64,000 nucleotides of DNA from an uncultured delta proteobacterium (GTDB lineage Bacteria; Myxococcota; Myxococcia; Myxococcales; Myxococcaceae). Shown one piece after another: positions 42,901 to 59,204 of the stretch (within the stretch, counting starts at the first letter, position 1; each line of letters starts with the position of its first letter). The position numbers and the translations under genes are program-made. The notes below the pieces were generated by a model. It saw only the letters and a list, made by a program, of their open reading frames with translations. It had not been told where the DNA came from and ran no database searches. The DNA lies in contig CAVZMH010000003.1 of NCBI GenBank assembly GCA_963776345.1, forward strand, positions 64,001 through 128,000, read 5' to 3'.

Positions 42901-43228
42901 GGAGCGCCAGGCGCTGGAATCGGTGATGACCGAGCCGTTCCGGGCGGCCCTGGCCCGGTTGGTCCCCGAGGTGCTGCGCCGGTCCGAGGGCGACCCGGTC
43001 CGGGAATACCTGGAGGGGGCAGAGCTGACCGGGGTCCGCTGTGCGCTGTTCACCGCGGGCGACCTCGAGGCGGTGAAGAAGCTCGTCCAGGGTGAAACCG
43101 GCTCCAGCTATCGCGTCGCGGGCAAGGTGAAGATCCGCGAGCTGATGACCTTCGCGGTCTCCGAGGACCTCGCCGCGCTCCGGATGGCGGTGGGAACCAA
43201 CGTCGAGGTCCCCACCCGGAAGTCCTGA
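33941..43228 (+). CDS. gltI: Giant TPR gliding motility protein GltI/AgmK
   Basis: 3095 aa of TPR-like helical repeats directly upstream of gltJ; GGGAGG before TTG 33941. Confidence 0.8.
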   Translation: MGTGADSVKAYSAVLHKKPNDAEALAALEALLKDETVRAEAARALIPAYEAVKEHRKLVAALDLVAEMTQDQLERVLALQQAAHVHLHHLRQPELAFAALSRALRLSPADPNLRTAARRAAEDADAMDGFANVLKELVGRPDVEPPARVALHRELADVQEKKLDDRRGAIGQLEAVLALEPGNGDALRALQRLLRATDDWHRLVPVLDTLAGVVPDPAERLALLREMALLLEGKLEDREAAAAAWRRVSEADPLNREAVSALDRLYTALGKFENLAFALELRRAQEGQSPQGREATFRLAQLRRDKLQDFGGALQLLGQVLSEDPGHTATVDLLEAWARSHDPDSRSALETLDPVLTRSGQHARRVAIREARMADALTDEKIRLSQEIRSIQERDMGQPQRAFVAAGQAFAANVDRAGSRADLERLARVTGSYEELADVYEQVAAGNRGADPDKIACLRRAAELREHLAQSDEAIKDWQALLADAPQDRQALDALGKLFEHTKNAKQLSDVTLRKAQLAADPHERRTLLLKAGEALEAAADDARAIDAYKEALALRRGADGLEALDRLYARGRRFEEQADVLSQLAASTTGEVQKAHLLRRAQLLEREKELPAAVEGYARLLAVAPTEPNAVAGLERLMELPDVRPDAARLLEPVYRSLNDVRHLVEVLEIRLAGASPQDRLPLLEEIANLRETLGEKDLAFAARARSFSEVPESPEAREQLERLAAETGAFEELAAAYQDQLERGVTNATSTELWRRLAVLWSERLDRMDLAVRAYEELARREPRNVAVLESLARIHTRAGEARELAAVMKRMVMAEPSPPKQIDLLFRLGTLAEETLSDKQLAAQCYGEILARKPDDEDAIKFLGKVLTESERWPELASLIVREIQLADSSGRHEEMYDLMVRLGRLRIARLRDPRGGLDIFEDVLRRKQGHAGAIGALEEMARSDSPLRGEAAEALEPIFTSGGDHLRLVQMLESRASTEPVAEERAALLRKVAKLYAGPMQNGDLAFVSASRALRELPDEEASLSLVVALAERASHGGEELASLLEEILPRASEDAARVAILRALGKAQEKLGHQAEAIDAWRRVLEVAPSDGEAMGFLVRLYQAAGRAPELLEIYKRQLSISEEPAVRAALLFQIAGLQDSAVHDTVGAMATLRRLLELKPDDAQALEKLDALCEKQERWPELADVIGRRLALPGGDLDLDLRLRLAVVRETRLHDKIGALELYGQILSAQPKHPGALAQLEAWAKREPQNKPLVEVLLGAYRVTGEQAKLAGLLELRVGASPDPFERRQLLIELAGLHEAGHDPAGVFGALARAFQEDPNDAALRARLGKAADAARAHEALAHLYEEELPRIAETKDAAAALLELGGLYEQHLSNPARAIEVLERARTLDAATSLPALTALSRLYGQAGRSDRLVESLDELEKLTPDGNERVQILFRLGQVAQDELEDEPRAADAFERLLAIDKTHLPAARLLESIYERSGTPDRLFNVLRIQRDLTSGPERERILAKMVKVSAEGLADLEASIELYSELFKKNPKSDQAFGALEQALEKAGRWEDLRALLAGKIPQTADPRELVRLNEKLGVVLYRQLGRAEEAIAPLRTALERDARNRNALETLRDIDEQLGRREELVAVLRRLIPLQEAPEGVKALRIRLAEVLGEMSRREEALDAARRSLEIEPHTVADLDRVGKLFLGLRAFGDAVRALELKAEVWQLLEEKDGVIAALFEIAEVWIGQAGKPEQAAPILERVLEFDPANRNAYERVLSLYSDAGDWRAYAQAVDRYLPNLVTDEDKIKALRELGRIREQKLGQKDGAFLALCRALQLDASDDSLREDVERLAQETGSFEELAAVYEQVADELPKGPLAERLYLVLARVQDRNLDDPGEAEAALRKILEFDPTNASALDAMAQMFGRRGRDRELIVSLEQKLEAAPSIEARKTILREVARIHLERLKDPEEAANALIRALELEADVETLAELARLYREQHMWGDLAATLARTRDLLPTAEERARMQVQVAEVQEREIGDEEAAVEAYREALALDPRNKEALEALERLYTRLDRPADLLAIYERQLELTEDYREKVKILFHSAAIWEDRYQNAANADACIDGVLALDPTSLQAIKALERLRRAQGRWEDLVGVLERHIQLATDTQEQADIMVEAGEVLRTHLHQTDKAADAFQAALQVFPGHTPALHALGTLYERSGNWPFALEMLHQEAQELGRDPRAVEVLHRMGKINEDMLQDVSSAKACYAEALRIDPDYLPSLQAVRGIYENEQDWDSYEQTLVAEARATDEASAKARAYLAIARYHSERREDPDSAMHWYEEAIKLDPELADAALPLSDIYLARERWEPAEQMLEVVIRSFKGRLATEQDDALSKDLCRQVYRMGYVQEKLGRRDRALAAYEEAYQLDATYLPALEGYGNLLVQSGRHDQALKVFQTILIHHREDLTDLEIVELYWQIGEVHIALKQHDRAQNHFEKALAIDPGHEPSLRALIQLADGAGRWDRSAEYRQALVGVLEGEPKAEAALELGQLARDRLRDPHTAIDAYAQALRIRPQSLEVMDALYVLYRETRQPGKAAEVLETMLGQPELQADAQRAKRVWFALGESLRDELRDTGRAVEAFNAALDLDPQFLEAFGAIEAMLGAAKEWKQLEENYARMIQRLPKTDETEPARMALWRALGDLYLQVLKQPESALMAYQVSAAGLPDDAPVQETYAELLLQSSGNEEKAVQALRLALAHTQNPKKVASQLAELAARRKDYDGAWLAAQVVAGLLGDPGPAEKEIISKLGPYAKKRETPRATLNDRSWAQHLLHPRVRTPFAELMGLLFQGAGQLSAVPLAQAQLVPKKHRIDVATAQEYQIHHYRAVARLLGLEAVELFSPFLVATRDKLAKRSMEPAPDPLLAVEIVHAHPVCLKVGGKFFGDPQAKDTHAQLGRTLALLRPELIFASRFSPERLAAVFQGAVLLAGFQMRWTAQAGAIEAERQALESVMTEPFRAALARLVPEVLRRSEGDPVREYLEGAELTGVRCALFTAGDLEAVKKLVQGETGSSYRVAGKVKIRELMTFAVSEDLAALRMAVGTNVEVPTRKS

Positions 43229-43305
43229 GCGCCTCCTCGTGCGTTCCTTGACCAGGCCGGGGGGCGACCTCTACGCTCGTCGGCTGGGCAACCCCGCCAA
43301 CTTCC

Positions 43306-45078
43306 ATGCGCTTCGTCTGCGACAGCTGCCGCGCTCAGTACATGATTCCCGACGAAAAGGTCGGGGAACGGGGGGTCAAGGTCCGTTGCAAGAAGTGCGG
43401 GAACGTCATCGTCGTCCGCCGTCCGTCGGACGCGGCGAGCGAGGCGGACGCCGCGCTGCGAGGGCTGGAGGAGCAGGCCCCGCCCGCCGCGGGTCCCGAG
43501 ACGCCCTCCGGGGAGACCTCCATCTTCAGCGACGTCGACGATGCGGAGATTGGCGCGGCGTTCGAGAGCGCGCTCGGCGAGCGGCAGGAGGAGCCACCGC
43601 CGCCGGAGCCCGATGAGTCGCACGACCAGGTGGAGGCGAACCTGCCGCCGCTCAGCGACGGGCCTCCCCGGCCGCTCGACTGGTACGTGGCCATCGACGA
43701 GAAGCAGACCGGCCCGCTGACCCCGGAGGCGATCAAGGACCACTGGGATCGCGGGGAAATCGGGCCCGACAGCCTGACCTGGCGCCAGGGCTTCGAGGAC
43801 TGGGTGCCGCTGTCCGAGGTCTCCGAGCTCGCGGCCTGGCTCGCTCCGCGTCCGCAGCGGCCGGTGTTCTCGCCGACGTCGGCGACCTCCGGCCCGGTGC
43901 CGGTGGTGCCGGTGCCGGTGGAGTCGGCGTTCAGCGCCGGGGGGATGATGCGCACGGTCCGGTCCGAGGTGCCCACCCCGGTGCCGGACGCGGGCGGCTG
44001 GAAGCCCTCGGCGTCGGCCGCGCTGGCCAGCCTGGTCAAGGAGGAGATCGACGCGCTCTCCAGGCCCGACGCTCCGCCGCCTGCGCCCGAGCCGGTCGCC
44101 TCCCCGCGGGGGCTGCTCGAGGTGCCGCCTCCGACCGGTGAGATCCCGGCGTCGAGCGTGAACGGCCGACCTTCCCGCGCCGAGGCACGGACGCCGGTCA
44201 CCGCGGTGGAGCGGCCGCCCACCTTCACCCCGGCGTATCCCTACGCCACGCGCCCGGTGAAGCCCGAGGGCAACAAGGGGGTCCTCATCGGGATCGGGGT
44301 GGCGGTCGCGGTGGTGCTCGCCGCGGTGGGCGGTGGTGGCTGGTACCTGCTCCAGCGCCAGAAGGCCGCCGAGCTCGCCGCCCGCCAGGGACCGCCCCAG
44401 GTGGAGCCGCCGAGGACGGTGACCCCGCCACCGGCGCAGCCGCCGCAGGTCGCCCAGCCGCCGCCGGCCACCGCCACCCCGCCGGCCACCACCTCCCTGA
44501 CCCCTCCGGTCCCCCCCCCGGTGGCGAAGGTCACCCCCGCGGTGCCGCCCGGCGAGTCCACCGGGACGCGGCGCGGCGGCAGCCGTGGCTCCCGGTCCCA
44601 CAAGTCGGGCGGTGGCGAGGAGGTCGCGTCCGCCGACTCGCCGAAGAGCTCGGGCGGTAACAAGAACAAGGCGGACGACCTCTTCGACGAGGTCTTCGGC
44701 ACCGGCGGCGGCTCCAAGTCCGACGAGAGCAAGGGCAGCAAGAAGTCCGCCTACGTCCCGCCCGCGCCTGGCGCGTCCAGCACCGACGTGCCGGACCGGC
44801 TCCCCAAGGGCGACATCATGTCGGTGGTGCTGGCGAACAAGCCGTCGATCGTGCGCTGCGTGAACGAGCAGAAGGCACGCGACTCCAACCTGCACGGCAC
44901 GCTGGTGATGCACTGGGTCATCCAGACCTCGGGGAAGACCGCCTCGGTCAACGCGGTCACTGACCAGTTCAGGTCGTCCTACATGGCCACCTGTCTCACC
45001 GGTCTGGTGAAGTCCTGGAACTTCCCCAAGCACAAGTACCAGCCGGGCGAGCCGGTGGACTTTCCCTTCACCTTCTAG
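43306..45078 (+). CDS. gltJ: Gliding motility protein GltJ/AgmX (zinc ribbon, GYF_2, TM, TonB-C-like)
   Basis: MRFVCDSCRAQYMI..VRCKKCG; WYVAI..QTGP..WRQGFEDW; TM; C-terminal FPKH..VDFPFTF. Confidence 0.9.
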   Translation: MRFVCDSCRAQYMIPDEKVGERGVKVRCKKCGNVIVVRRPSDAASEADAALRGLEEQAPPAAGPETPSGETSIFSDVDDAEIGAAFESALGERQEEPPPPEPDESHDQVEANLPPLSDGPPRPLDWYVAIDEKQTGPLTPEAIKDHWDRGEIGPDSLTWRQGFEDWVPLSEVSELAAWLAPRPQRPVFSPTSATSGPVPVVPVPVESAFSAGGMMRTVRSEVPTPVPDAGGWKPSASAALASLVKEEIDALSRPDAPPPAPEPVASPRGLLEVPPPTGEIPASSVNGRPSRAEARTPVTAVERPPTFTPAYPYATRPVKPEGNKGVLIGIGVAVAVVLAAVGGGGWYLLQRQKAAELAARQGPPQVEPPRTVTPPPAQPPQVAQPPPATATPPATTSLTPPVPPPVAKVTPAVPPGESTGTRRGGSRGSRSHKSGGGEEVASADSPKSSGGNKNKADDLFDEVFGTGGGSKSDESKGSKKSAYVPPAPGASSTDVPDRLPKGDIMSVVLANKPSIVRCVNEQKARDSNLHGTLVMHWVIQTSGKTASVNAVTDQFRSSYMATCLTGLVKSWNFPKHKYQPGEPVDFPFTF

Positions 45079-45103
45079 GTTGGTAAGGGCGCGCCGCCCC
45101 CCA

Positions 45104-46219
45104 ATGCGCCTCCCGATCGAGCCCAAGCTCCCGGATCTTCCCGTCCGCTCCGTGGCCGAGATGGGCCTCAAGGAGCTGGAGCGGGTACGCCTCATCCTCC
45201 GGGGGGGCTCGGTCGTCGACTGGCGCCGGTTGCACTTCCGGAACCGGGACGAGGTGGACCGCTTCCTCCGTCTGTGCGGGGTGGACCTGACGCACCACGC
45301 GGACGAGACCTGGGCGCGGCTGGTGCTGTCGGACGCGGTGGAGTACCTGCGCCGGACCTTCTCCTACCGGGTGGCGGATGCAGTGGCGCAGCCGGCGGAG
45401 ATCCACGACCTGTTCCTCTACGCCTCGGGGGTGAAGGAGCCGCACCGGTTCCGGCGGATCGCCTGCATCGTGCTGAAGGTCATGCACGTGGTGCAGCACA
45501 TCGAGGGGCGGGATCTCCTGTTCCGCCTGGCCGTCTCGGAGGCGGACCTCTCGCGGATGGCGACCGCCAAGGTGAACGGGGTGCTGGCGGAGGCGCGGGA
45601 AAAGGGGCTCCCGATCCTCGACTACAGCCCCTCGGTGAAGACCCGCGAGTCGCTGATCACCAAGCTGCTGGCGAAGAAGGAGACCGTGGCGGCGCAGGTC
45701 TACGACAAGACGCGCTTCCGGATCGTCACCCCGACGCGGGCGGACATCCTCCCGGTGCTCTACTTCCTGACCCAGCGCCTGTTCCCCTTCAACTTCGTGG
45801 TTCCGGGGCAGACCGAGAACACGCTGCTCCCCTTCAAGTCGCTCCTGCGTGAGTTCCCGCACTTCCGCGCCCACGCCCACGAGCTCCACCTCGATCCGGA
45901 CTTCGAGGACCGCGAGGGCGCGGGCGGCAACGAGTTCAGCGGGAGCGGGTACAAGGTGCTCAACTTCGTGGTGGACGTGCCGCTCCGGCTCGACGAGTGG
46001 CTGCCGCCCCCGGAGCTGGACCGCCGCGAGCGGAAGGGCCGGATCGGCTACACCCTGGTCGAGTTCCAGATGCTGGACGTGCATACCGCCGAGCTGAACG
46101 AGCGGGGCGAGAACGCCCACGCCCGGTACAAACACCGGCAGAAGCTCCGCGTCTTGCGGCGTCTGTCGCGCGGCCTGGTGGTACCCCGCGGCGAGGACCC
46201 GCCCGGCGAGGCCGAGTAG
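45104..46219 (+). CDS. TIGR04552-like conserved myxobacterial protein with RelA/SpoT synthetase-like motifs
   Basis: LILRGGSVVDWRRL, KTRESLITKLLAK, YDKTRFRIV, NEFSGSGYKVLNF, VEFQ, HARYK. Confidence 0.75.
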   Translation: MRLPIEPKLPDLPVRSVAEMGLKELERVRLILRGGSVVDWRRLHFRNRDEVDRFLRLCGVDLTHHADETWARLVLSDAVEYLRRTFSYRVADAVAQPAEIHDLFLYASGVKEPHRFRRIACIVLKVMHVVQHIEGRDLLFRLAVSEADLSRMATAKVNGVLAEAREKGLPILDYSPSVKTRESLITKLLAKKETVAAQVYDKTRFRIVTPTRADILPVLYFLTQRLFPFNFVVPGQTENTLLPFKSLLREFPHFRAHAHELHLDPDFEDREGAGGNEFSGSGYKVLNFVVDVPLRLDEWLPPPELDRRERKGRIGYTLVEFQMLDVHTAELNERGENAHARYKHRQKLRVLRRLSRGLVVPRGEDPPGEAE

Positions 46220-49334: not shown

Positions 49335-49420
49335 GCTCGGGTGGCGGAACCGGTAGACGCAGCGGACTTAAAATCCGCGAGCCCCCACGGGCTGTGAGGG
49401 TTCGACCCCCTCCCCGAGCA
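49335..49420 (+). tRNA. tRNA-Leu, anticodon TAA
   Basis: Acceptor stem GCTCGGG/CCCGAGC plus A; anticodon arm GCGGA-CTTAAAA-TCCGC; long variable arm; GGTTCGACCC T-arm; CCA not encoded. Confidence 0.95.
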
Positions 49421-49561
49421 CAGCGCGGCCTCGTTCACCGAGTCGCCTTCGGCGCCCCCTCCCGTGTGCAGTGTGGTTGCGTCTTCGGGGTACCGGGCGA
49501 GGCCCCCCCCGCCGGCCGGTGGGAGAGACTCCCGGTCGGGAGGCGCTGCGTCGCAGCATCA

Positions 49562-49605
49562 TTGAATACTTGCTCGCTCAACGAATCGAATCGTTGACAG
49601 ACAAT
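49562..49605 (+). promoter_or_regulatory. AT-rich promoter/operator region: TCAACGA-N6-TCGTTGA inverted repeat overlapping TTGACA
   Basis: Inverted repeat 49578-49597; consensus -35 TTGACA at 49594-49599; upstream of the respiratory region. Confidence 0.5.
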
Positions 49606-49664: not shown

Positions 49665-50366
49665 ATGCGAAATGCAGTCCTGATTGCAGCCGTCGCCCTC
49701 GCCACCGTCGCTCGCGCCGAGTACACCGAGGCGGCAGTCACCAACGGCGGAACGATCAGCGGTCGCGTCACCTACGACGGCACGCCACCGAAGCCCGAGA
49801 AGGTCACCGTCACCCAGGATCCCGGGACCTGCGGGACGTCGCGCGAGCTCGACGAGTGGCAGGTCTCCTCGTCAGGAGGGGTGAAGGACACGGTCGTCTA
49901 CCTGGTGGACATCAAGAGCGGGAAGAAGATGGACCTCCCGAGCAAGCCGACCCTCGACCAGAAGGGCTGCCGCTACGACCCGCACATGCAGATCATCGGT
50001 CAGAACGCGGACCTGCAGGTCAAGAACAGCGACCCGATCCTCCACAACATCCACTCGTACCAGGAGGGCCGGACCATCCTGAACCTCGCCGAGCCCAAGC
50101 AGGGGATGGTGGTGGAGAAGAAGATGAAGAAGTCTGGCGGTCAGTCGCTGAAGTGCGACGTCCACAACTTCATGCGCGGCGGGCTCTTCGTGGCGGAGAA
50201 TCCCTACGCGGTGGTCACTGACGCCGACGGCAAGTACGAGATCAAGGACGTCCCCCCCGGCACGTACCAGATCGCCGCCTTCCACGAGGTCGCCGGGACC
50301 AAGATGGGCACGGTCACCGTCCCCGCCGGGGGGAAGGCGTCCTACGACGCGAAGATCAAGAAGTGA
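49665..50366 (+). CDS. Periplasmic cupredoxin-like / carboxypeptidase-regulatory-like domain protein
   Basis: Signal peptide ending ARA; GTISGRV; LDQKGCRYDPH; NSDPILHNIH; KCDVHNFM; DVPPGTY. Confidence 0.75.
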   Translation: MRNAVLIAAVALATVARAEYTEAAVTNGGTISGRVTYDGTPPKPEKVTVTQDPGTCGTSRELDEWQVSSSGGVKDTVVYLVDIKSGKKMDLPSKPTLDQKGCRYDPHMQIIGQNADLQVKNSDPILHNIHSYQEGRTILNLAEPKQGMVVEKKMKKSGGQSLKCDVHNFMRGGLFVAENPYAVVTDADGKYEIKDVPPGTYQIAAFHEVAGTKMGTVTVPAGGKASYDAKIKK

Positions 50367-50893
50367 CCCGCTTCGCCGCTCCCGGTCGCCTCGAGCGCTG
50401 GGTGGCGCGCCCGGTCTTCTGGTGGACGGCGATGGGGCTCCTGGTGGGGGGCCTCCTCGTCTCGGGGGTGTCCCGCCCCGTGCCCCCGCGGCTCCCGGTG
50501 CTGGATCGGGTCCCGCCCACCGGCCGGGGGCGGCTGGTCGTCTTCGGTGATCCGGCGTGCCCGGAGTGCGTCGCCGCCAGCTCCGGGGCGCTGCGCTCCC
50601 TCTCCCGTCACCTCCGGTCGGTCCGCCAGGGCTTCGATCTGGAGTGGATCAGCCTGGGCGACGCGGCGACGGCCCCCGCGCTCGGACCGCCGGTCCTCAC
50701 GGTGGACGATGGTTCGCGCGCTGCACCTCTGGTCGCGTTCCTGGCGCGGAGCCCGGAGCAGGCCGCGCTCCGCCGCGGCGAGCGCGGGGTGCTGGTCGAT
50801 CCGGCCGGCAAGGTCCGGGCGCTGCCCGTGCTCTCCGATCCGCCCGCGCGCGATCTGCTGCCGGCGATCACCCAGGTGATCAACGGTCGCTAG
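50363..50893 (+). CDS. Degenerate SCO/thioredoxin-like membrane-anchored protein
   Basis: N-terminal TM then PPRLPVL; CPEC; late VLVDPAGKVR, as in the SCO strand LVDxxGxIR. Confidence 0.5.
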   Translation: MTRFAAPGRLERWVARPVFWWTAMGLLVGGLLVSGVSRPVPPRLPVLDRVPPTGRGRLVVFGDPACPECVAASSGALRSLSRHLRSVRQGFDLEWISLGDAATAPALGPPVLTVDDGSRAAPLVAFLARSPEQAALRRGERGVLVDPAGKVRALPVLSDPPARDLLPAITQVINGR

Positions 50894-50937
50894 CGAACAG
50901 TCCGGGCTCCCGGGCGCTGCTCGACTGTTCGATGTTT
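50894..50937 (+). terminator. Possible terminator hairpin
   Basis: CGAACAGTC (50894) and GACTGTTCG (50923) inverted repeat followed by ATGTTT, right after the stop codon. Confidence 0.35.
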
Positions 50938-51105
50938 GACTGAGCAATGAAGTGGTGTTTCCAGGCAGGGCTTCATTGCTTCTGCTTCAAACGACGCGGC
51001 GTGGCGTGAAAATCCTTTGTTTGGAATCTTCGCCCGGTTGTCCCTTTAGTTGCGCGCGCAATGGATGCCGCTCGATGTGGCGAGCGGCCGAGGGAGGAGG
51101 GTGGC

Positions 51106-52413
51106 ATGAAGCTGCGCGTCCTTGTCGTCGCCGCTGCCGCGCTGGCAGTGCTGCTACCGGGATCGGCCGGGGCGATCCCTGCCTTCGCCCGGAAGTACAA
51201 CGTGGCCTGCAGCACCTGCCACGAGGCCTGGCCGAAGCTGAACGACTTCGGGCAGCTGTTCCGTGACAACGGCTACCGGATGAACCGGGGCAAGGACAAC
51301 CCCACCGAGCAGAACGGGTCGTACTGGCCGATCGCCATGCGCACCACCGTGGGCTACCAGTTCGCGCAGCAGGAGGGGGTGGCGGTGGCTGAGCCGCCGG
51401 GGACCACCACCACCAAGACCGGGACTCTCGGCTTCGCCGGCCTGGACATCCTCACCGCCGGTGCGCTCGGCGAGCAGATGAGCTGGCTGCTGGTCTACAC
51501 CCCTGGGCTGGGGAGCGCGGGATTCGGAACCGGGCCCGCAGACGGAGATCTGGAATCGGCCTTCGTCGGCTTCCACCGCCTCTTCGGAACACCGTTCCTC
51601 AACCTCCGGGTGGGGAAGCACGCGCCGGATCTGCCGGTGGACGAGCACCGGATCCTGACCCTCACCCAGGGGTACAACATCTTCCACTTCCATCCGCAGG
51701 GAAGCGCCGCGACCTTCGAGCCAGGGAGCAACCAGGCGGGCGTGGAGATCTACGGACACACCGAGCTGGACGAGCTCCGCTACTCCGTCACGGTGGCCAC
51801 CGAGAACGACGCCATCTTCTCCAAGAACTGGGTCAGCTCGCCGGTGGTCTGGGCCAGGGTCTCGGGGAAGGTGATGCTCAACAACGGGATCCTGCCGGAG
51901 ATCAAGGGCGGAATCTTCGGCTCCGCCGGCTGGCACCCGGTCCAGGCGCTGACCGATCCTGCCTCGGGGGACCCGGTGAGCGGCACGGCCTACTCCAACC
52001 AGCCCTACCAGAAGTTCGGGGCCGATCTGCACCTGCTCTTCTTCAGCACCGTGAACCCCCTGGACATCACCGGGGTGGTGATGTTCGGGAACGAGGACCA
52101 GGCGCTGATCGCCAATGGCACCCGGTCCGCGCAGTGGCTCGGCGGGTTCGTCGAGGTGAACTGGGTCCCCACCTTCAACTGGGCGATCGTCGGCCGGTAC
52201 GAGCAGATCGCCACCACCCAGGCCGGGGACCCCACGGCGGCGCAGGATGAGGGGGATCTCACCGCGTTCACCCTCGCGATTCGCTACACGATGGAGTTCT
52301 CGAACCGGGCGGCGGTCACCCTGGTGCTCGAGGGTAGCCAGGTCTCCACCACTTCGTCGGGCATGCAGCCGAAGGGCAGCACTGTGCTCGCCGGCATCGA
52401 CTTCGCGTTCTAA
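51106..52413 (+). CDS. cyc2: Cyc2/Cyt572-like fused monoheme cytochrome c - outer-membrane porin
   Basis: GGAGGAGG RBS; signal peptide ending AGA; IPAFARKYNVACSTCHEAWPKLNDFGQLFRDNGY; about 370 aa of amphipathic strands ending GIDFAF. Confidence 0.8.
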   Translation: MKLRVLVVAAAALAVLLPGSAGAIPAFARKYNVACSTCHEAWPKLNDFGQLFRDNGYRMNRGKDNPTEQNGSYWPIAMRTTVGYQFAQQEGVAVAEPPGTTTTKTGTLGFAGLDILTAGALGEQMSWLLVYTPGLGSAGFGTGPADGDLESAFVGFHRLFGTPFLNLRVGKHAPDLPVDEHRILTLTQGYNIFHFHPQGSAATFEPGSNQAGVEIYGHTELDELRYSVTVATENDAIFSKNWVSSPVVWARVSGKVMLNNGILPEIKGGIFGSAGWHPVQALTDPASGDPVSGTAYSNQPYQKFGADLHLLFFSTVNPLDITGVVMFGNEDQALIANGTRSAQWLGGFVEVNWVPTFNWAIVGRYEQIATTQAGDPTAAQDEGDLTAFTLAIRYTMEFSNRAAVTLVLEGSQVSTTSSGMQPKGSTVLAGIDFAF

Positions 52414-52430
52414 CCGGAGGAACCACGCGC

Positions 52431-53186
52431 ATGGCCTCGCTCCGACCCGTCCTCGTCGCCACCCTCGGCATCGCCGCGGTGGCGCTTCTCTCCGGTGCCG
52501 ACCAGGGCGGTGACGCCGCCCCGGTACCCATCGATCAGGGCCTCGTCGCCCGCGGCAAGCCGCTCTACGAGCGCTTCTGCATCAGCTGTCACGGACCGCA
52601 GGGCGACGGCCAGGGATACGCCGCCCAGTGGCTGGATCCGCTGCCCCGGGATTTCACCTCGGGCATCTTCAAGTGCCGCTCGACGCCGAGCGGGACGCTG
52701 CCCACCGACGCGGACCTGATGCGCACGCTGCGCGTCGGCGTCTACCACACGTACATGCCGCCCTGGGCCGCGCTGGGGGACTGGAACCTCCGCGCGCTGG
52801 CCGAATACATCAAGACCTTCTCGCCGAAGTGGAAGGAGGAGGCGCCCGGGCAGCCGATCACCATCCCGCCTGCGCCTCCGGACGACGAGGCCTCCCGGAA
52901 GCGCGGCGCGGTGATCTGGGCCAACAACCAGTGCGCCAAGTGCCACGGGGCCAAGGGCAAGGGCGACGGGCTCTCGGTGCCCACCCTGATGGACGACTGG
53001 GGTCACCACATCACCCCGTTCGACTTCACCAGCAGCGACGCCCGGAAGTGCGGGAACACCGACACCGATCTCTACCGGACCTTCATGACCGGGGTGAGCG
53101 GCACGCCGATGCCCTCCTTCGCCGACAGCCTGAAGCCGGAGGAGGCCTGGGACCTGGTGCACTTCCTCCACACGCTCCGTCAGTAG
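52431..53186 (+). CDS. Diheme cytochrome c
   Basis: Signal peptide; CISCH and CAKCH; PRDFT; MPPW and MPSF distal Met motifs. Confidence 0.9.
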   Translation: MASLRPVLVATLGIAAVALLSGADQGGDAAPVPIDQGLVARGKPLYERFCISCHGPQGDGQGYAAQWLDPLPRDFTSGIFKCRSTPSGTLPTDADLMRTLRVGVYHTYMPPWAALGDWNLRALAEYIKTFSPKWKEEAPGQPITIPPAPPDDEASRKRGAVIWANNQCAKCHGAKGKGDGLSVPTLMDDWGHHITPFDFTSSDARKCGNTDTDLYRTFMTGVSGTPMPSFADSLKPEEAWDLVHFLHTLRQ

Positions 53187-53202
53187 GACCGATCGCCCAC
53201 CG

Positions 53203-53844
53203 ATGACCACCGCCGCCACCCACGTTCACCACGAGGTCACCGCCAGCTGGCCACCCGACGCCCAGTTCGGGAAGGCCAACCCCGCCAAGCTGGCGATGTG
53301 GATCTTCCTCCTCTCAGACTGGCTGTCGTTCGCCGGGCTCCTCCTGGCCTATGGCATCCTCCGAGCCGGGAACGCGGTGTGGCGCCACCCGGGAGAGCCG
53401 GCGCTCAACATCCCCTTCACCTGCCTCCTGACGCTGGTGCTCATCGCCTCGAGCATCAGCGTCATCGTGGCCCACGACGCGGCGCTCGGGGGCGACCGCC
53501 GTCGCACCGCGCGCTGGCTGGGCATCACCGCCCTCGGGGGGGTGCTGTTCCTCACCGGCCAGTACGCGGAGTGGATCGGCATCCTCCACCCCGGGCTGAT
53601 GCACGAGGGTCTGGTGTTCGGGCGCTCGGCCTACGCCAGCACCTTCTACGTGATCACCGGCTTCCACGGCCTGCACGTCACGGCCGGCGTCATCTACCTG
53701 CTCGCGGTGCTCGGGCGCACCGCCCGGGGCGTGGCCCGGGCCCAGGAGGTGGAGCTGGTGGCGCTCTTCTGGCACTTCGTCGACCTGGTCTGGAACCTGG
53801 TGTTCGTCCTGGTCTACCTGGTGCCTACCGGAGGTGCGGGATGA
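53203..53844 (+). CDS. Heme-copper oxidase subunit III-like (copy 1)
   Basis: KLAMWIFLLSD, FYVITGFHGLHV, LFWHFVDLVW. Confidence 0.9.
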   Translation: MTTAATHVHHEVTASWPPDAQFGKANPAKLAMWIFLLSDWLSFAGLLLAYGILRAGNAVWRHPGEPALNIPFTCLLTLVLIASSISVIVAHDAALGGDRRRTARWLGITALGGVLFLTGQYAEWIGILHPGLMHEGLVFGRSAYASTFYVITGFHGLHVTAGVIYLLAVLGRTARGVARAQEVELVALFWHFVDLVWNLVFVLVYLVPTGGAG

Positions 53845-54137
53845 GCACCTCGGCGGCGGCCCAGAACCGCACCCGTGACTACTTGGTGATGCTGGCGGTG
53901 ATGGTCGCCCTCACCGTGCTCGAGGTGGGGGTGGCCCTCGTCCCCGGGCACGCGGGCTGGACGGTGGTGCTCCTCCTCGCGCTGGCCCTGGCCCAGGCGG
54001 TGTACTTCGCGCTCTACACCATGCACCTCTCGCGAGAGACGGTCGCGCTGCGACGGATGGCGGCCGGGCCGGGCGTCATCGCCGCGTTCTACGCGCTGGT
54101 GCTGGTCGCCGAGGCAGCCTGGAGGCACTTCACGTGA
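53841..54137 (+). CDS. Heme-copper oxidase subunit IV-like
   Basis: Three TMs, LTVLEV and YTMHLSRE motifs; ATGA coupling. Confidence 0.75.
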   Translation: MSTSAAAQNRTRDYLVMLAVMVALTVLEVGVALVPGHAGWTVVLLLALALAQAVYFALYTMHLSRETVALRRMAAGPGVIAAFYALVLVAEAAWRHFT

Positions 54138-54298
54138 CGCTGTTCCAGCTGGTGCTGCTCGCCTGTCCCGCCTGTGCCGCGAACTCCGCCTCTCCGGGGG
54201 TGGCGGTGCTCCTCCCGGCGCTGATCGGGACGCCCTTCCTGGTGGCCGGGGCGGTCATCCTCGGCATCCGCAAGGTCTCCCGAGGAGGGGAGTCATGA
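54134..54298 (+). CDS. 54-aa membrane protein with a CxxC motif (not in the ORF track)
   Basis: Reads VTLFQLVLLACPACAANSASPGVAVLLPALIGTPFLVAGAVILGIRKVSRGGES; 4-bp overlaps with both neighbours. Confidence 0.7.
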   Translation: MTLFQLVLLACPACAANSASPGVAVLLPALIGTPFLVAGAVILGIRKVSRGGES

Positions 54299-55080
54299 AG
54301 CTCGCGCTGCTCGCCGCCGGTCCGCTGGGAATCGGGCTCCCCTTCGATGCCTCGAAGGATGGCTGGCGGATCGACGAGATGATCAACACCACCACCACCT
54401 TCGTGGGGGTGATCTTCCTGATCATGGTGGCCTGGATGGCCTGGTCCATCTTTCGCCACGGCCCGAAGCACACCGCGGTGTTCGACCACGGAGACAAGCG
54501 CAGCTCCTGGATGTGGACCGTGGCCACCGCCGGGCTGATCTTCGTGGTGGTGGACGGTGACCTCCTGGTCCGAACCCTGATCGCCGTCAACCGGATCTAC
54601 TGGAACTTCGAGGAGGCCGAGAAGCGGCCGGACGCGGTGCGGATCGAGATCAACGCCCACCAGTGGGCCTGGTCGGTGCGCTACGCCGGTCCGGACGGCA
54701 AGTTCAACACCGCCGACGACGTGATCACCCTGAACGAGGTGGTGCTCCCCAAGGACGCCCCGGCCCTCTTCCAGGTGGCCTCCACCGACGTGCTCCACAG
54801 CTTCAACGTCCCCAACATGCGGATGAAGGTCGACGCGGTGCCGGGGACCATCAATCGCATGTGGTTCACTCCGGCCCAGCTCGGCGACTACGAGATCGGC
54901 TGCGCCCAGCACTGCGGCGCCAACCACTACAAGATGCAGGGCATGGTGCACGTGGTGGAGCCCGCCCGGTTCCAGCAGTGGCTGGCCGCCGCCTCCGCCA
55001 ACGCGCGCCAGGGATACGACCCCCAGGACACCGAAGCCCACTGGGGCTGGGACTGGGCCGAGCACACGAGGGTTCGATGA
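54295..55080 (+). CDS. coxB: Cytochrome c oxidase subunit II (CuA)
   Basis: Two TMs, HQWAW, STDVLHSF, DAVPG, CuA motif CAQHCGANHYKM. Confidence 0.9.
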   Translation: MKLALLAAGPLGIGLPFDASKDGWRIDEMINTTTTFVGVIFLIMVAWMAWSIFRHGPKHTAVFDHGDKRSSWMWTVATAGLIFVVVDGDLLVRTLIAVNRIYWNFEEAEKRPDAVRIEINAHQWAWSVRYAGPDGKFNTADDVITLNEVVLPKDAPALFQVASTDVLHSFNVPNMRMKVDAVPGTINRMWFTPAQLGDYEIGCAQHCGANHYKMQGMVHVVEPARFQQWLAAASANARQGYDPQDTEAHWGWDWAEHTRVR

Positions 55081-56882
55081 TCGCCGAGGAACACCTGGAC
55101 CGAGAGACGCTGGAGCTGGCCGAGGCGCTCCAGCCGATCCATCACCCGCCGGAGACCTTCTTCCGCAAGTACCTCTGGTCGCTCGACCACAAGGTCATCG
55201 CCAAGCAGTACCTGTGGGCCGGCCTGATCTTCCTCCTGGTGGGCGGCACGCTGGCCATGCTCATCCGCTGGCAGTGGGCCTTCCCCGGCCAGCCGGTGCC
55301 CGTCCTGGGGAAGATCTTCCTCAGCGACTCCGGAGGGGTGATCGGCCCCGCCCAGTACATGCAGGTGTTCACCATGCATGGACTGATCATGATCTTCTTC
55401 GCCATCACCCCGATCCTGATCGGCGCGTTCGGGAACTACTGCATCCCCTTGCTGATCGGCGCACGGGACATGGCGTTCCCCTGGCTGAACGCGCTCTCGT
55501 TCTGGGTGTTCGCCCTCTCGCTCTGCCTGGTGGTGGGCGCGTTCTTCGGCGACCTCGGCGCGGCCGGGGCAGGGTGGACCACGTACCCGCCGCTCTCCAC
55601 CAACGTCGGCACGCCCGGCAGCGGCCAGACGCTGATGATCTTGGCGATCTTCGTCACCGGCGTCTCGTCGATCATGGGCGGCATCAACTACGTCACCACC
55701 GTCATCCGTCTGCGGGCGCCGGGGATGACCTGGCTCCGGATGCCGCTCACCGTCTGGGGGCTGTTCCTCACCGCGGTGCTCAACGTGCTCTTCATTCCGG
55801 TGCTGGGCTCGGCGGCGCTGCTGCTCCTCCTCGACCGGGTGTTCGGCACCCAGTTCTACCTGGCGGGGGTGGCCACCCAGGGCGGTGGAGACCCGATCCT
55901 CTTCCAGCACCTGTTCTGGATCTTCGGCCACCCCGAGGTCTACATCCTCATCCTCCCGGCCTGGGGCATCGTGGGCGACCTGCTGGCCTTCTTCAGCCGC
56001 AAGCCGGCCAACTGGTACCTGGGCACGGTGCTGGCGATGACCGCGGTGACCGTGCTCAGCGCGGTGGTCTACGGCCACCACATGTTCATGACCGGGCTCA
56101 ATCCGTTGCTCGGGCAAGGGTTCATGGTGTTGACCCTGATCATCAGCGTCCCGGCCGAGCTGCTGTTCCTCAACTGGCTGCGCACCATCTGGAAGGGCTC
56201 CATCCGGCTCACCACGCCGATGCTCTTCTCCCTGGGGATGGTATTCGTCTTCGGGTTCGGGGGCCTCACCGGCCTGTACCTCGGCGCGGTGGCGCCGGAC
56301 TTCTACCTCCACGACACCATGTTCGTGGTGGGCCACTTCCACTTCACCATGGCCGCCGCCTCGTTCCTGGCCAGCTTCGCCGCGCTCTACTTCTGGTTCC
56401 CCAAGATGTTCGGTCGGTCGATGAGCGAGCCCCTGGGGAAGGCGCACTTCTGGATCACCGTGGTGGGTATCACCCTGGTCTTCGGCGGGCAGCTGCTCGC
56501 CGGGTACTCGGGACAGCACCGGCGGCTGTACGACCCGTTCGTCTACCAGTACCTCCAGCCGCTCCGGGCGCTGAACCGCTACACCAGCTACGCGGCCTTC
56601 GTGCTCTTCCTCGGCCAGCTGGCCTTCATCTGGAACTTCTTCCACTCCATGGTGCGTGGACCGAAGGCCGAGGCCAACCCCTGGCAGGTGGGGACGCTGG
56701 AGTGGTCCATTCCCTCCCCGCCGCCGATCCACAACTTCGACCACCTCCCCATCGTTCGTCGCGGTCCGCACGAGCTCTCCAGCCCCGAGGTCCGGGCCCG
56801 GCTGGGACGGGACTGGATCGGCCAGGCGGAGGTGCTGCCCGACGCGCGCGATGTTCCGACGACGGCGCCGGCGCGCGGGTGA
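55077..56882 (+). CDS. coxA: Cytochrome c oxidase subunit I, A-family-like
   Basis: DHKVI, TMHG, RDMAFP, GWTTYPPL, WIFGHPEVY, GHHM, HDT..GHFH, HRR. Confidence 0.93.
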   Translation: MIAEEHLDRETLELAEALQPIHHPPETFFRKYLWSLDHKVIAKQYLWAGLIFLLVGGTLAMLIRWQWAFPGQPVPVLGKIFLSDSGGVIGPAQYMQVFTMHGLIMIFFAITPILIGAFGNYCIPLLIGARDMAFPWLNALSFWVFALSLCLVVGAFFGDLGAAGAGWTTYPPLSTNVGTPGSGQTLMILAIFVTGVSSIMGGINYVTTVIRLRAPGMTWLRMPLTVWGLFLTAVLNVLFIPVLGSAALLLLLDRVFGTQFYLAGVATQGGGDPILFQHLFWIFGHPEVYILILPAWGIVGDLLAFFSRKPANWYLGTVLAMTAVTVLSAVVYGHHMFMTGLNPLLGQGFMVLTLIISVPAELLFLNWLRTIWKGSIRLTTPMLFSLGMVFVFGFGGLTGLYLGAVAPDFYLHDTMFVVGHFHFTMAAASFLASFAALYFWFPKMFGRSMSEPLGKAHFWITVVGITLVFGGQLLAGYSGQHRRLYDPFVYQYLQPLRALNRYTSYAAFVLFLGQLAFIWNFFHSMVRGPKAEANPWQVGTLEWSIPSPPPIHNFDHLPIVRRGPHELSSPEVRARLGRDWIGQAEVLPDARDVPTTAPARG

Positions 56883-56889
56883 GCCTCCG

Positions 56890-57489
56890 ATGACCGGCGT
56901 TCTCCTGTACCGGCCGCTGCATGCCCGCGAAGAGGCCACGGCGCGGGTGGGGATGCTCCTCTTCCTCGGCAGCTGGGCGATGATGTTCGCCGGGCTGTTC
57001 TTCGCCCTGGGGGTGGTGCGCTGGCGAAGCCCGATGTGGCCCCCCGAGGAGGTGGGCCCGCTCCCGGTGGGCTGGGCCGCCCTGAACACGGCGCTCCTTA
57101 TCGGGTCGAGCCTAGCGCTGGAAGTCGCGCTGCGCGCCGTGCGGCGGGCGAAGCTCGCGTCGATGCGCACCGCGCTGAGCGTGGCGCTGGCGGTGGGGCT
57201 GGCCTTCCTGGGGAGCCAGGTCCTCCTCTTCGCCAGGATGGTGAACCTGGGCGTCCGCTGGGACGCCGGGGCGTTCGGCGGCGCGGTGTTCGGGCTGTGC
57301 GGCTTCCACGCGCTCCACGCCGCGGTGGGCCTCGCGGGGCTCGCCGCGGTGCTGGCCGCCGCGATGCGCGGCGTGCTCCAGCCGGCCCGTCACCTGCGTC
57401 TGCAGCTCTGGACCCACTACTGGCACTTCGTCGGGGTGGTGTGGCTCATTCTCTTCCCGGCGGTGTTCGCCGGCACCGGCGGAGGCTGA
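56890..57489 (+). CDS. Heme-copper oxidase subunit III-like (copy 2)
   Basis: GMLLFLGSWAMMF, NTALLIGSS, GFHALHA, YWHFVGVVW. Confidence 0.85.
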   Translation: MTGVLLYRPLHAREEATARVGMLLFLGSWAMMFAGLFFALGVVRWRSPMWPPEEVGPLPVGWAALNTALLIGSSLALEVALRAVRRAKLASMRTALSVALAVGLAFLGSQVLLFARMVNLGVRWDAGAFGGAVFGLCGFHALHAAVGLAGLAAVLAAAMRGVLQPARHLRLQLWTHYWHFVGVVWLILFPAVFAGTGGG

Positions 57490-57492
57490 TCG

Positions 57493-58428
57493 ATGCGACG
57501 ACTGATCGCCTGGGTCCCGGTGCTCCTGCTCGCGGCGTGCGCGAAGGACACCCGACCGTTCAAGGCTCCCATGAAGCTCGCGGGGAAGATGGTGCCCGCC
57601 GAGACGCTGAACCTCGGCCGGACCAGCTACCTCCAGTACTGCCGCGCCTGTCACGGGAACGAGGGCAAGGGCGACGGCCCCTCGGCGCCGGGGCTCCGGC
57701 CCCCGCCGCGCAACTTCACGCAAGGGGAGTTCAAGTTCGGAGGGGTGCTCGACCAGAAGCTCCCCCGCGACGAGGACCTGGTCCGCATCGTCCGGAGCAA
57801 CCTGCATGGCACGGCGATGCTCGGCTGGGAGGTGCCTGAGCGGGAGCTGACCGCCATCATCCAGTACCTCAAGACGCTCTCCGACGCCTGGAAGGACGAC
57901 GACGCAGTGGGCGAGCCGGTGGTGGTGGCCCCCGATCCCTTCGGCCCCGGAAAGGAGGCCGAGGCGATCGCACGCGGCAAGCTGCTCTACCACGGCTTCA
58001 CCCAGTGCCTGAACTGCCACCCCGCCTACGCGACGCCCCAGGAGATCAGCGACGCGTCCCAGCAGCTGAACGGCCACCCGACCACGGATTTTCGCGCCGA
58101 CATGTACTTGCCGGAGATGAAGCCCAGCGACTACACGGCCTCGGACGGCAAGGCGGTGCAGCTCCTGCCGCCCGACTTCCTCCTCAACCCGGTCCGCTCC
58201 ATCCAGCCCGGCACGGAGCTGACCGACCTGTACCGGATTCTGGTCTCCGGCGTGACCGGCGCGGCGATGCCGGCCTGGGATCCTCAGGTATTGCCCGACA
58301 AGACCCGGGACGTGTGGGCGCTCGCGTACTACGTCCGCTCGCTCATCCAGATGCGCGGCACGGAGCAGGCCCTGGCGTTCAAGTCGCGTCTGGCGAGCTC
58401 CGCACCCCACCCCAAGGGTCCGCAGTGA
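57493..58428 (+). CDS. Diheme cytochrome c lipoprotein
   Basis: Lipobox LLAAC; CRACH and CLNCH; PRNFT; AMPAW. Confidence 0.9.
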   Translation: MRRLIAWVPVLLLAACAKDTRPFKAPMKLAGKMVPAETLNLGRTSYLQYCRACHGNEGKGDGPSAPGLRPPPRNFTQGEFKFGGVLDQKLPRDEDLVRIVRSNLHGTAMLGWEVPERELTAIIQYLKTLSDAWKDDDAVGEPVVVAPDPFGPGKEAEAIARGKLLYHGFTQCLNCHPAYATPQEISDASQQLNGHPTTDFRADMYLPEMKPSDYTASDGKAVQLLPPDFLLNPVRSIQPGTELTDLYRILVSGVTGAAMPAWDPQVLPDKTRDVWALAYYVRSLIQMRGTEQALAFKSRLASSAPHPKGPQ

Positions 58429-58652
58429 GCGGGGAGGCGACCGTGCTCCGGCTCTCGAGCGTCCACCGGGTGGTCATCACCTCGGCGCTCCTGGTGTGCA
58501 TCGGGGTGACGATCTTCGGGCTGACCAGGCCCGAGGGACCCGCGCGGGGCGACTGGGAGGCCCTGGGGATCACCGGGCTGTCGGTCGCGGTGCTGCTCGG
58601 CGCCTACCTGTCCTGGTTCGTCGCCCGTCACCCCAGACCTGAGCGGCGCTGA
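58425..58652 (+). CDS. Small two-TM membrane protein closing the oxidase operon
   Basis: GTGA coupling; LSSVHRVVITSALL and a second hydrophobic helix. Confidence 0.6.
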   Translation: MSGEATVLRLSSVHRVVITSALLVCIGVTIFGLTRPEGPARGDWEALGITGLSVAVLLGAYLSWFVARHPRPERR

Positions 58653-59136
58653 GCGGCGCGACGCCGCGGACCTTGCCGTGGTCGCCGTTCTGCGGCCCCT
58701 GGACGAGCCGTGGCTCGCCGAGCCGCCGCAGGAGGCCCCGGAGCTCGTGCTGCTCGGTGGGATCGAGGACTCCGAGGACCCTCTCGCCGGCGCGGAGCAC
58801 CAGTGGCTCGAGCTTCCGGTGCCAGCGCCGGCCGGCGGGAGTCAGGGTGACCAGTCGCCTTCGCTGGTCCAGGGGGTCGAGCGCCCGGGCGGTGAGCCCC
58901 CGGCGGTCCATCTCGTCGAGCAAACGGGAGATCCCTGCCGGGTGCTGGCCGGTGATCTCCGAGAGGTCCTTCTGGGTCGCTGCCCGCCGCTCCACGAGAC
59001 GGGCGGCGACGATCCAGGCCCCCATGTCCTCACCGCGGTTTCCCAGCTCGTGGCCGGCCGCGAGGTAGAGGGCCCGACGGGCCTTGGTGATCAGGCGGGT
59101 CAGCTCGGGCAACAGAGTTGTGCCTGCGCTCTGCAT
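58570..59136 (-). CDS. MarR family transcriptional regulator
   Basis: TQKDLSEITGQHPAGISRLLDEMDRRGL..DPLDQRRRLVTLTPAG. Confidence 0.88.
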   Translation of the reverse strand: MQSAGTTLLPELTRLITKARRALYLAAGHELGNRGEDMGAWIVAARLVERRAATQKDLSEITGQHPAGISRLLDEMDRRGLTARALDPLDQRRRLVTLTPAGRRWHRKLEPLVLRAGERVLGVLDPTEQHELRGLLRRLGEPRLVQGPQNGDHGKVRGVAPLSAAQVWGDGRRTRTGRRRAAPRPTAR

Positions 59137-59188: not shown

Positions 59189-59204
59189 TTGCGTGAACAC
59201 GCAA
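59189..59204. promoter_or_regulatory. Inverted repeat TTGCGTG-AA-CACGCAA upstream of marR (candidate operator)
   Basis: Perfect 7-bp arms in an AT-richer gap about 50 bp before the MarR start. Confidence 0.55.

Follow-up and report, generated by a model that had tools for sequence, protein, structure and literature searches.

A run of 12 genes at positions 49665 to 58652 of a 64,000-nucleotide stretch of DNA from an uncultured member of the Myxococcaceae (contig CAVZMH010000003.1, positions 64,001 to 128,000; the whole stretch is referred to as the window) was analyzed. The run brings together a Cyc2-family porin-cytochrome, two dihaem cytochromes c, a blue copper protein and a haem-copper oxidase. 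The locus is real and conserved and is probably an electron-uptake path, which would work like the rus operon of Acidithiobacillus ferrooxidans without being one. A first-pass annotation, made from the letters of the sequence, had proposed an outer-membrane-to-O2 electron chain, and such a path came out as the most likely function, given the identity of the Cyc2 protein, the conserved linkage to the oxidase and the coupling to three oxidase types. The full proposal, an inward path to O2 whose donor would be dissolved outside the cell and would probably be Fe(II), is judged to be about evenly balanced.

Organization of the locus

In the open reading frame (ORF) table of the window, all 12 ORFs lie on the + strand.

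49665..50366, +: secreted amicyanin-like type-1 (blue) copper protein (ligand set, model, fold match)
50363..50893, +: degenerate SCO1/SenC-like membrane-anchored protein (alignment with the true PF02630 protein of genome G042)
51106..52413, +: Cyc2-family monohaem cytochrome-porin, 435 amino acids, signal peptide (motif, model, fold match)
52431..53186, +: CytA, periplasmic dihaem cytochrome c of the Kustc0457 type (2 CxxCH, PDB match)
53203..53844, +: oxidase subunit III, first copy (PF00510)
53841..54137, +: oxidase subunit IV (PF03626)
54134..54298, +: CxxC membrane miniprotein, 54 amino acids (CxxC conserved in matching ORFs)
54295..55080, +: CoxII with CuA ligand loop (Pfam, alignments)
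55077..56882, +: CoxI, A1-type haem-copper O2 reductase (alignment to 1ar1_A, column table)
56890..57489, +: oxidase subunit III, second copy (PF00510)
57493..58428, +: CytB, dihaem cytochrome c lipoprotein, paralogue of CytA (2 CxxCH, lipobox)
58425..58652, +: two-helix membrane protein, 75 amino acids (conserved in the genus, weakly in genus g50)

The intergenic gaps along the run were, in order, -4, 212, 17, 16, -4, -4, -4, -4, 7, 3 and -4 bp, and by the ORF coordinates the gaps from cyc2 to the last gene are short or overlapping throughout. Pfam matches above the cut-off were obtained for both copies of CoxIII, for CoxIV, CoxII and CoxI, and for the two dihaem cytochromes c. The co-oriented run of 12 genes, with the parts first listed for it, was thus borne out.

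Positions 50644 to 55950 recur in a contig of another soil run at ~98% identity, with 114 differences. Because this contig spans the junction between cyc2 and the cox genes, the junction is no assembly artefact. The DNA runs that hold sequence of the locus are labelled soil, peat, wetland and sediment; three of them were compared directly, and for runs with a small share of the locus the labels alone are the habitat evidence. There were no RNA runs among the holders listed. One RNA run was compared and gave short pieces, which were used neither way.

The porin-cytochrome is a member of the Cyc2 family

Keffer et al. (bioRxiv 10.1101/228056) define Cyc2 by the motif AXPXFAR[Q/K][T/Y] before CXXCH, with PXL four residues after it, and further by a signal peptide, one haem, a length of at least 365 residues and a C-terminal 16-strand porin like OprP/OprO. 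The window protein carries all three elements of the motif, and its 435 residues include one CxxCH and a signal peptide, the latter judged by eye. In an alignment of 108 rows the motif pattern, with the leading Ala omitted, matched in 102, and every row had exactly one CxxCH. The structure model (pLDDT 92) is predicted to have 16 long strands, and PorB, OprP and OprO were found as fold matches with E values of 1e-11 to 1e-9. Motif, single haem and predicted 16-strand porin all fit the published definition, and the identification as a Cyc2-like cytochrome-porin made at first sight holds. No Cyc2 model in Pfam or NCBIfam matched the 435-residue protein, and no solved relative was found by sequence. 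Two features of the 108-row alignment bear on the possible donor: a near-invariant loop motif containing acidic and His residues (D152 in 108/108 rows, H158 in 104/108), and several Arg residues that are conserved in the barrel.

Three Cyc2 clusters have been laid out by McAllister et al. (PMC7029218). At the N terminus of the mature window protein, seven of the first 10 residues are those printed for Leptospirillum Cyt572 (review PMC13741234), and its nearest Atlas clusters are from Aminicenantota, Nitrospirota and Acidobacteriota, groups that are partly named around Cyc572 in PMC10654088. Because of the Cyt572-like N terminus and these nearest clusters, the protein probably belongs to cluster 3. 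It shares with Leptospirillum Cyt572 the defining motif, the single haem, a length above 365 residues and the predicted 16-strand porin. It differs in size (435 residues against ~570) and in its host, a heterotrophic soil bacterium, and the function here is a putative one.

The linkage of cyc2 and oxidase is conserved in Myxococcales

Four candidates per genome were scored in an alignment search of 401 Myxococcota genomes, 88 of which gave Cyc2-like matches. Of 29 loci of the close subfamily that were inspected, 3 end at a contig edge, leaving 26 readable. The pair cyc2-cytA stood beside this oxidase in 19 of the 26, in three families and in several gene orders: 5 loci in the genus of the host, 7 in genus g50 (two of them frameshifted), 3 in family f8 and 4 in family f7. 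The linkage is kept in relatives; a synteny survey across Myxococcota had been named as a check of it. The order varies, with cyc2 before the oxidase in the window, after it in G042, G358 and G372, and with sco between the two in G135 and G317. The 14 complete CoxI sequences that are linked to cyc2 form, together with the one from G054, a single 15-row clade with support of 95/93; a search for cyc2 in G054 gave no match. A quick Cyc2 tree had the same main groups as the CoxI tree. Since kin are not independent, the 19 loci count as one gain kept through rearrangements, not as 19 events.

Within the genus of the host, the cassette is present in 6 of 13 genomes, split in two in G001; 4 genomes are empty and 3 are unreadable. 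In G002, G004, G006 and G012 a clean empty site lies between the same flanking genes. Outside the genus, loci L027 and L162 encode proteins with identical counterparts recorded for Anaeromyxobacter diazotrophicus, and L165 encodes one with an identical counterpart in A. oryzae; both species are cultured paddy-soil isolates. A. diazotrophicus has both the cyc2-oxidase cassette (WP_176064264.1, WP_176064266.1, WP_176064267.1) and a second type of cyc2 operon (WP_176067932.1), described below.

Linkage outside the Myxococcales and three types of oxidase

Of 587 relatives in a metagenome scan the best 80 were retained, which left 70 loci after de-duplication. Among the 54 loci with a whole cyc2 and following sequence, 50 had a CytA-like gene next to cyc2, in one case a small monohaem protein. 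Where 3.5 kb behind cyc2 could be read, an oxidase was located within 6 kb in 20 of 28 loci. Three of these 20 oxidases are of the myxobacterial type (one from the same organism as G003), 15 belong to a separate clade, and 2 are of the cbb3 type. An inward route to O2 is likely, and what speaks for it most strongly is that cyc2-dihaem pairs are coupled to oxidases of three types.

The gene order in the 15-locus type is cyc2-dihaem-cupredoxin-coxB-coxA, followed by two coxIII genes where the contig is long enough. The source names of four of these loci (one via a duplicate) are acidobacterial, and single Dormibacteraeota and Verrucomicrobiae labels occur within clusters of such loci. Their CoxI proteins form a separate clade with 40-45% identity and are also devoid of K354. 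The acidobacterial operon has the CytA and cupredoxin families, the CxxC miniprotein and a K354-less A1 oxidase in common with the window, and the Cyc2 clades are sisters. It differs in its separate CoxI clade and its rus-like order, and no CytB or SCO gene was seen in the run.

A plasmid search gave one match, to the motif only. Among distant cyc2-like genes, those at L030:7496-9753, L031:8765-10983, L058 and L169 come right after a dihaem protein, which is a cytochrome c peroxidase where scanned. In family f7 (L163:8090-10637, L166, L167) a pentahaem cytochrome gene lies directly upstream of a short cyc2-like gene. At L157:4093-13656 and L164:5864-10708 a cyc2-like gene occurs near the gene of an eight-haem protein of ~1000 residues; L157 also has a cytochrome b, for which the best model was ExtP, below the cut-off.

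CytA and CytB

CytA, with 2 CxxCH, had PDB entry 6H5L_B as its best match over the whole length (E 1e-50); cytochrome c4 was matched with E 0.96 only. On this comparison, an assignment of CytA to Cyc1, the c4-type dihaem protein, was rejected. Entry 6H5L is a Kuenenia HAO-like structure, and Kustc0458 was crystallized together with the dihaem protein Kustc0457 (PMC8042395); for these reasons we take chain B of 6H5L to be Kustc0457. CytA is alike to Kustc0457 of Kuenenia stuttgartiensis over the whole length. Kustc0457, however, feeds a nitrite-reducing HAO-like enzyme, whereas CytA has a porin on one side and an O2 reductase on the other. In the genome loci, CytA followed directly after cyc2 in 27 of 28 readable cases and is thus its constant partner.

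A complex prediction for Cyc2 and CytA scored 0.38, compared with 0.07 for the best control, and was graded as weak support. The separate runs gave 0.02, 0.53 and 0.38, with a partner pLDDT of at least 82 and at least 10% of the contacts agreeing between runs. Among solved complexes 116 of 157 reach the mark applied in these predictions, and among mismatches 2 of 215 do so; at values up to 0.60 it is reached by only 18 of the 157 solved complexes and by both mismatches.

CytB has 2 CxxCH and a lipobox and is a paralogue of CytA. It is kept in 12 of the 15 loci where this oxidase has no adjoining cyc2, and it is therefore likely to be the oxidase's own electron donor. Matches of CytA and CytB to cytochrome 579 were rejected, with 40 bits against a cut-off of 280. 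At L110:10297-11934 a CytA fused to ~280 extra residues (546 residues in all) was noted behind cyc2, with no oxidase nearby.

The oxidase is an A1-type enzyme without the usual K-channel

In an alignment of CoxI to Paracoccus subunit I (1ar1_A), the six His ligands, the cross-link Tyr, D124, N131 and E278 were retained. The K-channel positions were changed (K354L, T351A and S291 to Gly). CoxII has the CuA ligands and no fused cytochrome, and in the alignment to 2yev_B the position of E78, the entry glutamate of the K-channel, is occupied by Ser. Because helix VI carries E278, CoxI was classed as A1, and by these residues the oxidase is a non-canonical member of that type without the usual K-channel. 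The K-channel Lys was absent from all 32 CoxI rows, whether linked to cyc2 or not, and K-channel loss therefore predates the link to cyc2. Similar losses have been described for acidophilic iron oxidizers by Degli Esposti et al. (bioRxiv 10.1101/2020.03.01.968255; PMC8239418). The Asp at position 292 was considered as a special feature and rejected, Glu or Asp being usual there (PMC8239418, supplementary file 5).

D124 and N131 are also lost in some members of the family (G034, G024), and in G014 E278 is lost as well (L075, L076, L077); the CoxI proteins of these three genomes are thus without both canonical proton channels. Other Myxococcales oxidases without K354 are found at L078:6149-7918 and L079:6286-8064; of these, the one in G017 directly precedes genes resembling those of alternative complex III (ACIII).

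The 54-residue miniprotein had its CxxC in 18/18 matching ORFs examined and travels with the oxidase; no named family was found for it. The host genome (G000; 5.1 Mb, 98% complete) has a haem A synthase gene elsewhere. As it also encodes two further haem-copper oxidases, one A2 and one cbb3, the oxidase of the window is an extra enzyme.

Cupredoxin and SCO-like protein

The copper protein has an amicyanin-like cupredoxin domain within a carboxypeptidase-regulatory-like beta-sandwich. Its type-1 ligands His, Cys, His and Met were invariant in 71/71 aligned rows. The model (pLDDT 96) matched amicyanin and plastocyanin in fold; amicyanin, plastocyanin, pseudoazurin and CuA domains were the top matches listed, and rusticyanin was not among them. 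The ligand set and the predicted fold agree with the putative blue-copper protein that had been read from the sequence.

For the SCO-like gene the outcome was mixed. No Pfam match was obtained, CxxC is present instead of the CxxxC of SCO1/SenC proteins, and the distal His region is lost. The protein nevertheless aligned with a genuine PF02630 member encoded at the corresponding locus of G042. By sequence the homology is clear and the protein is a degenerate SCO1/SenC homologue. Homologues of the cupredoxin and SCO genes flank the cassette in most loci.

Transcription units, regulation and flanking genes

The features outside the coding run were as follows.

49335..49421, +: tRNA-Leu(TAA), bordering the accessory block on the left; the flanking genes are kept in congeners without the cassette
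49570..49599, +: palindrome of 12 bp, TTG-N6-CAA, with a TTGACA hexamer behind it; the cupredoxin-sco unit is predicted to have its regulator site and promoter here
50936..51061, +: two TTG-N6-CAA palindromes (50936-50947, 51050-51061), predicted control region of the cyc2-cox unit
58570..59136, -: MarR-family regulator (PF12802)

The 212-bp gap before cyc2 has a GC content of 0.59, compared with 0.72 in the genome. Box and TTGACA before the cupredoxin gene were found in 5/5 same-genus loci examined; of the gap boxes, the near one occurred in 6/6 and the far one in 5/6 same-genus loci, with variable centres. Shuffled sequences reached the observed counts in 0 of 2000 cases for the two gap boxes and in 8 of 2000 for the cupredoxin box, with a motif that had been derived from this same locus. 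The cupredoxin-sco pair of G008 and G001 is flipped and faces away from cyc2. Because of the GC-poor gap with its own conserved palindromes and the flipped pair in these two genomes, there are probably two transcription units, cupredoxin-sco and cyc2-to-end, which are likely to be co-regulated. The single run of the first-pass annotation therefore holds for the orientation of the genes and probably not for their transcription. A promoter scan gave no sigma-70 consensus. No + strand terminators were found; the scan gave 3 sites, all on the - strand, with 3.3 expected.

The adjacent MarR protein is a candidate regulator of the cassette. The gene is present in the 6 carriers, and no match was found at the 4 empty sites; within the genus it was thus gained or lost together with the cassette. 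It has an upstream palindrome of its own, a different 16-mer at 59189-59204, of which the same or a close variant was found in 6/6 carriers. The 12-bp box was rejected as a clear regulon mark, about half of its 26 sites in the genome lying inside genes. The marR ORF and the last cassette gene overlap by 83 bp on opposite strands (58570-58652), and the C-terminal part of MarR is a poor match in relatives.

The host had been taken to be a gliding myxobacterium. In accord with this, the genome belongs to the Myxococcaceae, and a gltJ gliding gene in the window scored above the NCBIfam cut-off. At window positions 33941-46219, genes for a 3095-residue TPR protein, gltJ and a TIGR04552 gene follow in succession as part of a gliding-motility neighbourhood.

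A second cyc2 gene is joined to alternative complex III

A second cyc2 motif in G000 was located on contig C20 (L032:801-9699, minus strand). The protein and the window Cyc2 are alike in the haem region alone. The gene heads an operon with genes for a cupredoxin, a pentahaem protein, a molybdopterin iron-sulfur protein, NrfD, ActD and a monohaem protein, that is, ACIII. A cyc2-ACIII arrangement was found in 9 of 10 loci of this second subfamily examined, and it is also the second operon of A. diazotrophicus mentioned above. In all, G000 has three ActD genes or ACIII operons. At L171 a cyc2-like ORF of 1083 residues was noted, apparently a fusion.

Two other regions of the genome contain redox genes. 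About 10-20 kb beyond the window (L061:9837-19849 on contig C3), complete hyp genes are accompanied by a membrane-bound [NiFe] uptake hydrogenase with cytochrome b. At G000:C22:16011-32735, a cytochrome b gene is surrounded by genes for proteins with 9, 9, 13 and 9 haems, a candidate conduit for outward electron flow. ATP-citrate lyase and MtrB were also searched for, with no match in any control genome, and these searches are uninformative.

Discussion

In the mechanism that we favour, Fe(II), free or organically bound, would be oxidized at the haem of Cyc2. Electrons would pass to periplasmic CytA, to lipid-anchored CytB, to CuA, to haem a and to the a3-CuB center, where O2 would be reduced with protons taken up mainly via the D-channel. 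We infer every one of these electron-transfer steps. The cupredoxin may be a parallel carrier, or it may supply copper together with the SCO-like protein. Through the second cyc2-cupredoxin-ACIII operon, an inlet of this kind would be connected with the quinone pool. For a heterotroph living where oxic and anoxic zones meet, the benefit would be proton-motive force, that is, lithoheterotrophy; autotrophy is not proposed, because neither RuBisCO (5/5 carriers searched) nor acetyl-CoA synthase (G000) was found.

The A. ferrooxidans rus operon is induced by Fe(II) as one transcript; its order is cyc2-cyc1-cup-coxBACD-rus (review PMC13741234). In both systems one locus combines a Cyc2-family porin, a dihaem carrier and a cupredoxin with an oxidase of the A family, and the oxidases of both are without K354 and E78. 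In contrast to the rus CoxI, which is classed as A2 (PMC8239418, supplementary file 5), the enzyme described here is A1, with two subunit III genes and the CxxC miniprotein. The dihaem protein is Kustc0457-like, the cupredoxin amicyanin-like, the gene order another one, a second dihaem lipoprotein is present, and the searches for RuBisCO gave nothing. The likeness to the rus operon that had been proposed therefore applies to the design and not to orthology. Rus-like clusters with non-Cyc1 cytochromes and doubled COX3 have been reported in Gemmatimonadetes and other soil metagenome-assembled genomes (MAGs) (bioRxiv 10.1101/2020.03.01.968255); the main text of that paper does not contain "Myxo", and its supplementary taxon table may list myxobacteria. 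Cyc2 is among the proteins of Myxococcota MAGs in Olmsted et al. (bioRxiv 10.1101/2022.03.26.485925), and a deltaproteobacterial Cyc2 stands in a tree of PMC12442345. The subject of the paper on Ca. Acidoferrum (PMC7980381) is iron reduction, and "cyc2" is absent from its main text. No published description of a myxobacterial cyc2-oxidase operon was found in a search that left most subscription journals outside.

Several observations weigh against an inward iron-oxidizing path. No oxidase adjoins cyc2 in 7 of the 26 readable loci, and the oxidase occurs without an adjoining cyc2 in 15 loci, so neither needs the other. The lack of RuBisCO and acetyl-CoA synthase matches counts on the same side. 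The K-channel loss was rejected as an adaptation to Cyc2, being common to all CoxI rows regardless of cyc2. More distant Cyc2 homologues adjoin genes for peroxidases, pentahaem proteins and ACIII, neighbours that fit a general redox port equally well as an iron oxidase. Of the Cyc2 clusters, cluster 3 is the one whose function is most uncertain according to Keffer et al. (bioRxiv 10.1101/228056), and a Cyc2 match has been reported in the iron reducer Geobacter sulfurreducens (Olmsted et al., bioRxiv 10.1101/2022.03.26.485925).

As to the donor, Mn(II) had been named beside Fe(II) and was dropped, as nothing at the locus points to it; the enzymes known to oxidize Mn in bacteria are multicopper oxidases and peroxidases. 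The same inward wire to O2 could instead take its electrons from humic quinones in the reduced state, from shuttles of the phenazine type or from some other small soluble reductant present in soil or peat, a reading that is unlikely and still deserves serious consideration. All linkage evidence applies to it equally, the hosts are heterotrophs of organic-rich soils, peat and wetland, the barrel with its conserved Arg residues resembles anion porins in fold, and reduced dissolved organic matter is argued to be a possible donor for Cyc2 carriers by Olmsted et al. (bioRxiv 10.1101/2022.03.26.485925). On the other hand, Fe(II) is the sole donor shown for any Cyc2, across all three clusters (bioRxiv 10.1101/228056), and the near-invariant D152/H158 loop motif would suit a metal site.

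Improbable, in our estimate, is a haem-porin that acts as a channel or redox-gated importer of copper or another cofactor for the oxidase, together with the cupredoxin and the SCO-like protein, and is not a respiratory inlet at all. The flanking cupredoxin and SCO homologues, the general-porin fold and the established need of CuA and CuB for copper agree with such a role. However, the constant neighbour of cyc2 is a dihaem carrier and not a transporter, in this genus the SCO-like protein has degenerated, the Cyc2 paralogue goes with ACIII, a complex established to be copper-free, and the 15 oxidases without an adjoining cyc2 do without such an importer at their loci. We regard as very improbable an outward or two-way port in which CytA would be a branch point, with electrons from ACIII passing to O2 or, when O2 is exhausted, via Cyc2 to Fe(III) or humics. 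The three ACIII operons and the multihaem cluster in the genome speak for it, as do the G. sulfurreducens match and the presence of Anaeromyxobacter, treated as an iron reducer in PMC10734482, among the carriers. Yet inward flow agrees better with the predicted co-transcription with an O2 sink and with the repeated coupling to oxidases of three types, and it is established that Fe(III) reduction is normally performed by low-potential multihaem conduits. The inward path to O2, probably from Fe(II), is thus the reading that we prefer.

A wider proposal is that soil myxobacteria, including Anaeromyxobacter, carry a complete two-branch iron oxidation with two different Cyc2 inlets, of which one would deliver electrons downhill to O2 through the K-channel-less oxidase and the other uphill to the quinone pool through ACIII; we hold this to be conceivable and rather doubtful. 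If it is true, one heterotrophic cell could reduce Fe(III) without O2 and re-oxidize Fe(II) with O2, and A. diazotrophicus, being in culture, would provide the first genetic model of a Cyc2 that probably belongs to cluster 3. Iron oxidation by Cyc2 homologues outside the classic iron oxidizers is an open question according to Keffer et al. (bioRxiv 10.1101/228056). The locus provides gene-neighbourhood evidence that, in a lineage of heterotrophs, such a Cyc2 feeds a terminal oxidase. The question becomes testable because a named species has both the cassette and the cyc2-ACIII operon. A widespread natural A1 oxidase without the K-channel Lys bears on proton uptake by such enzymes. If such a Cyc2 does oxidize iron here, the oxidizing side of the iron cycle in soil would include myxobacteria.

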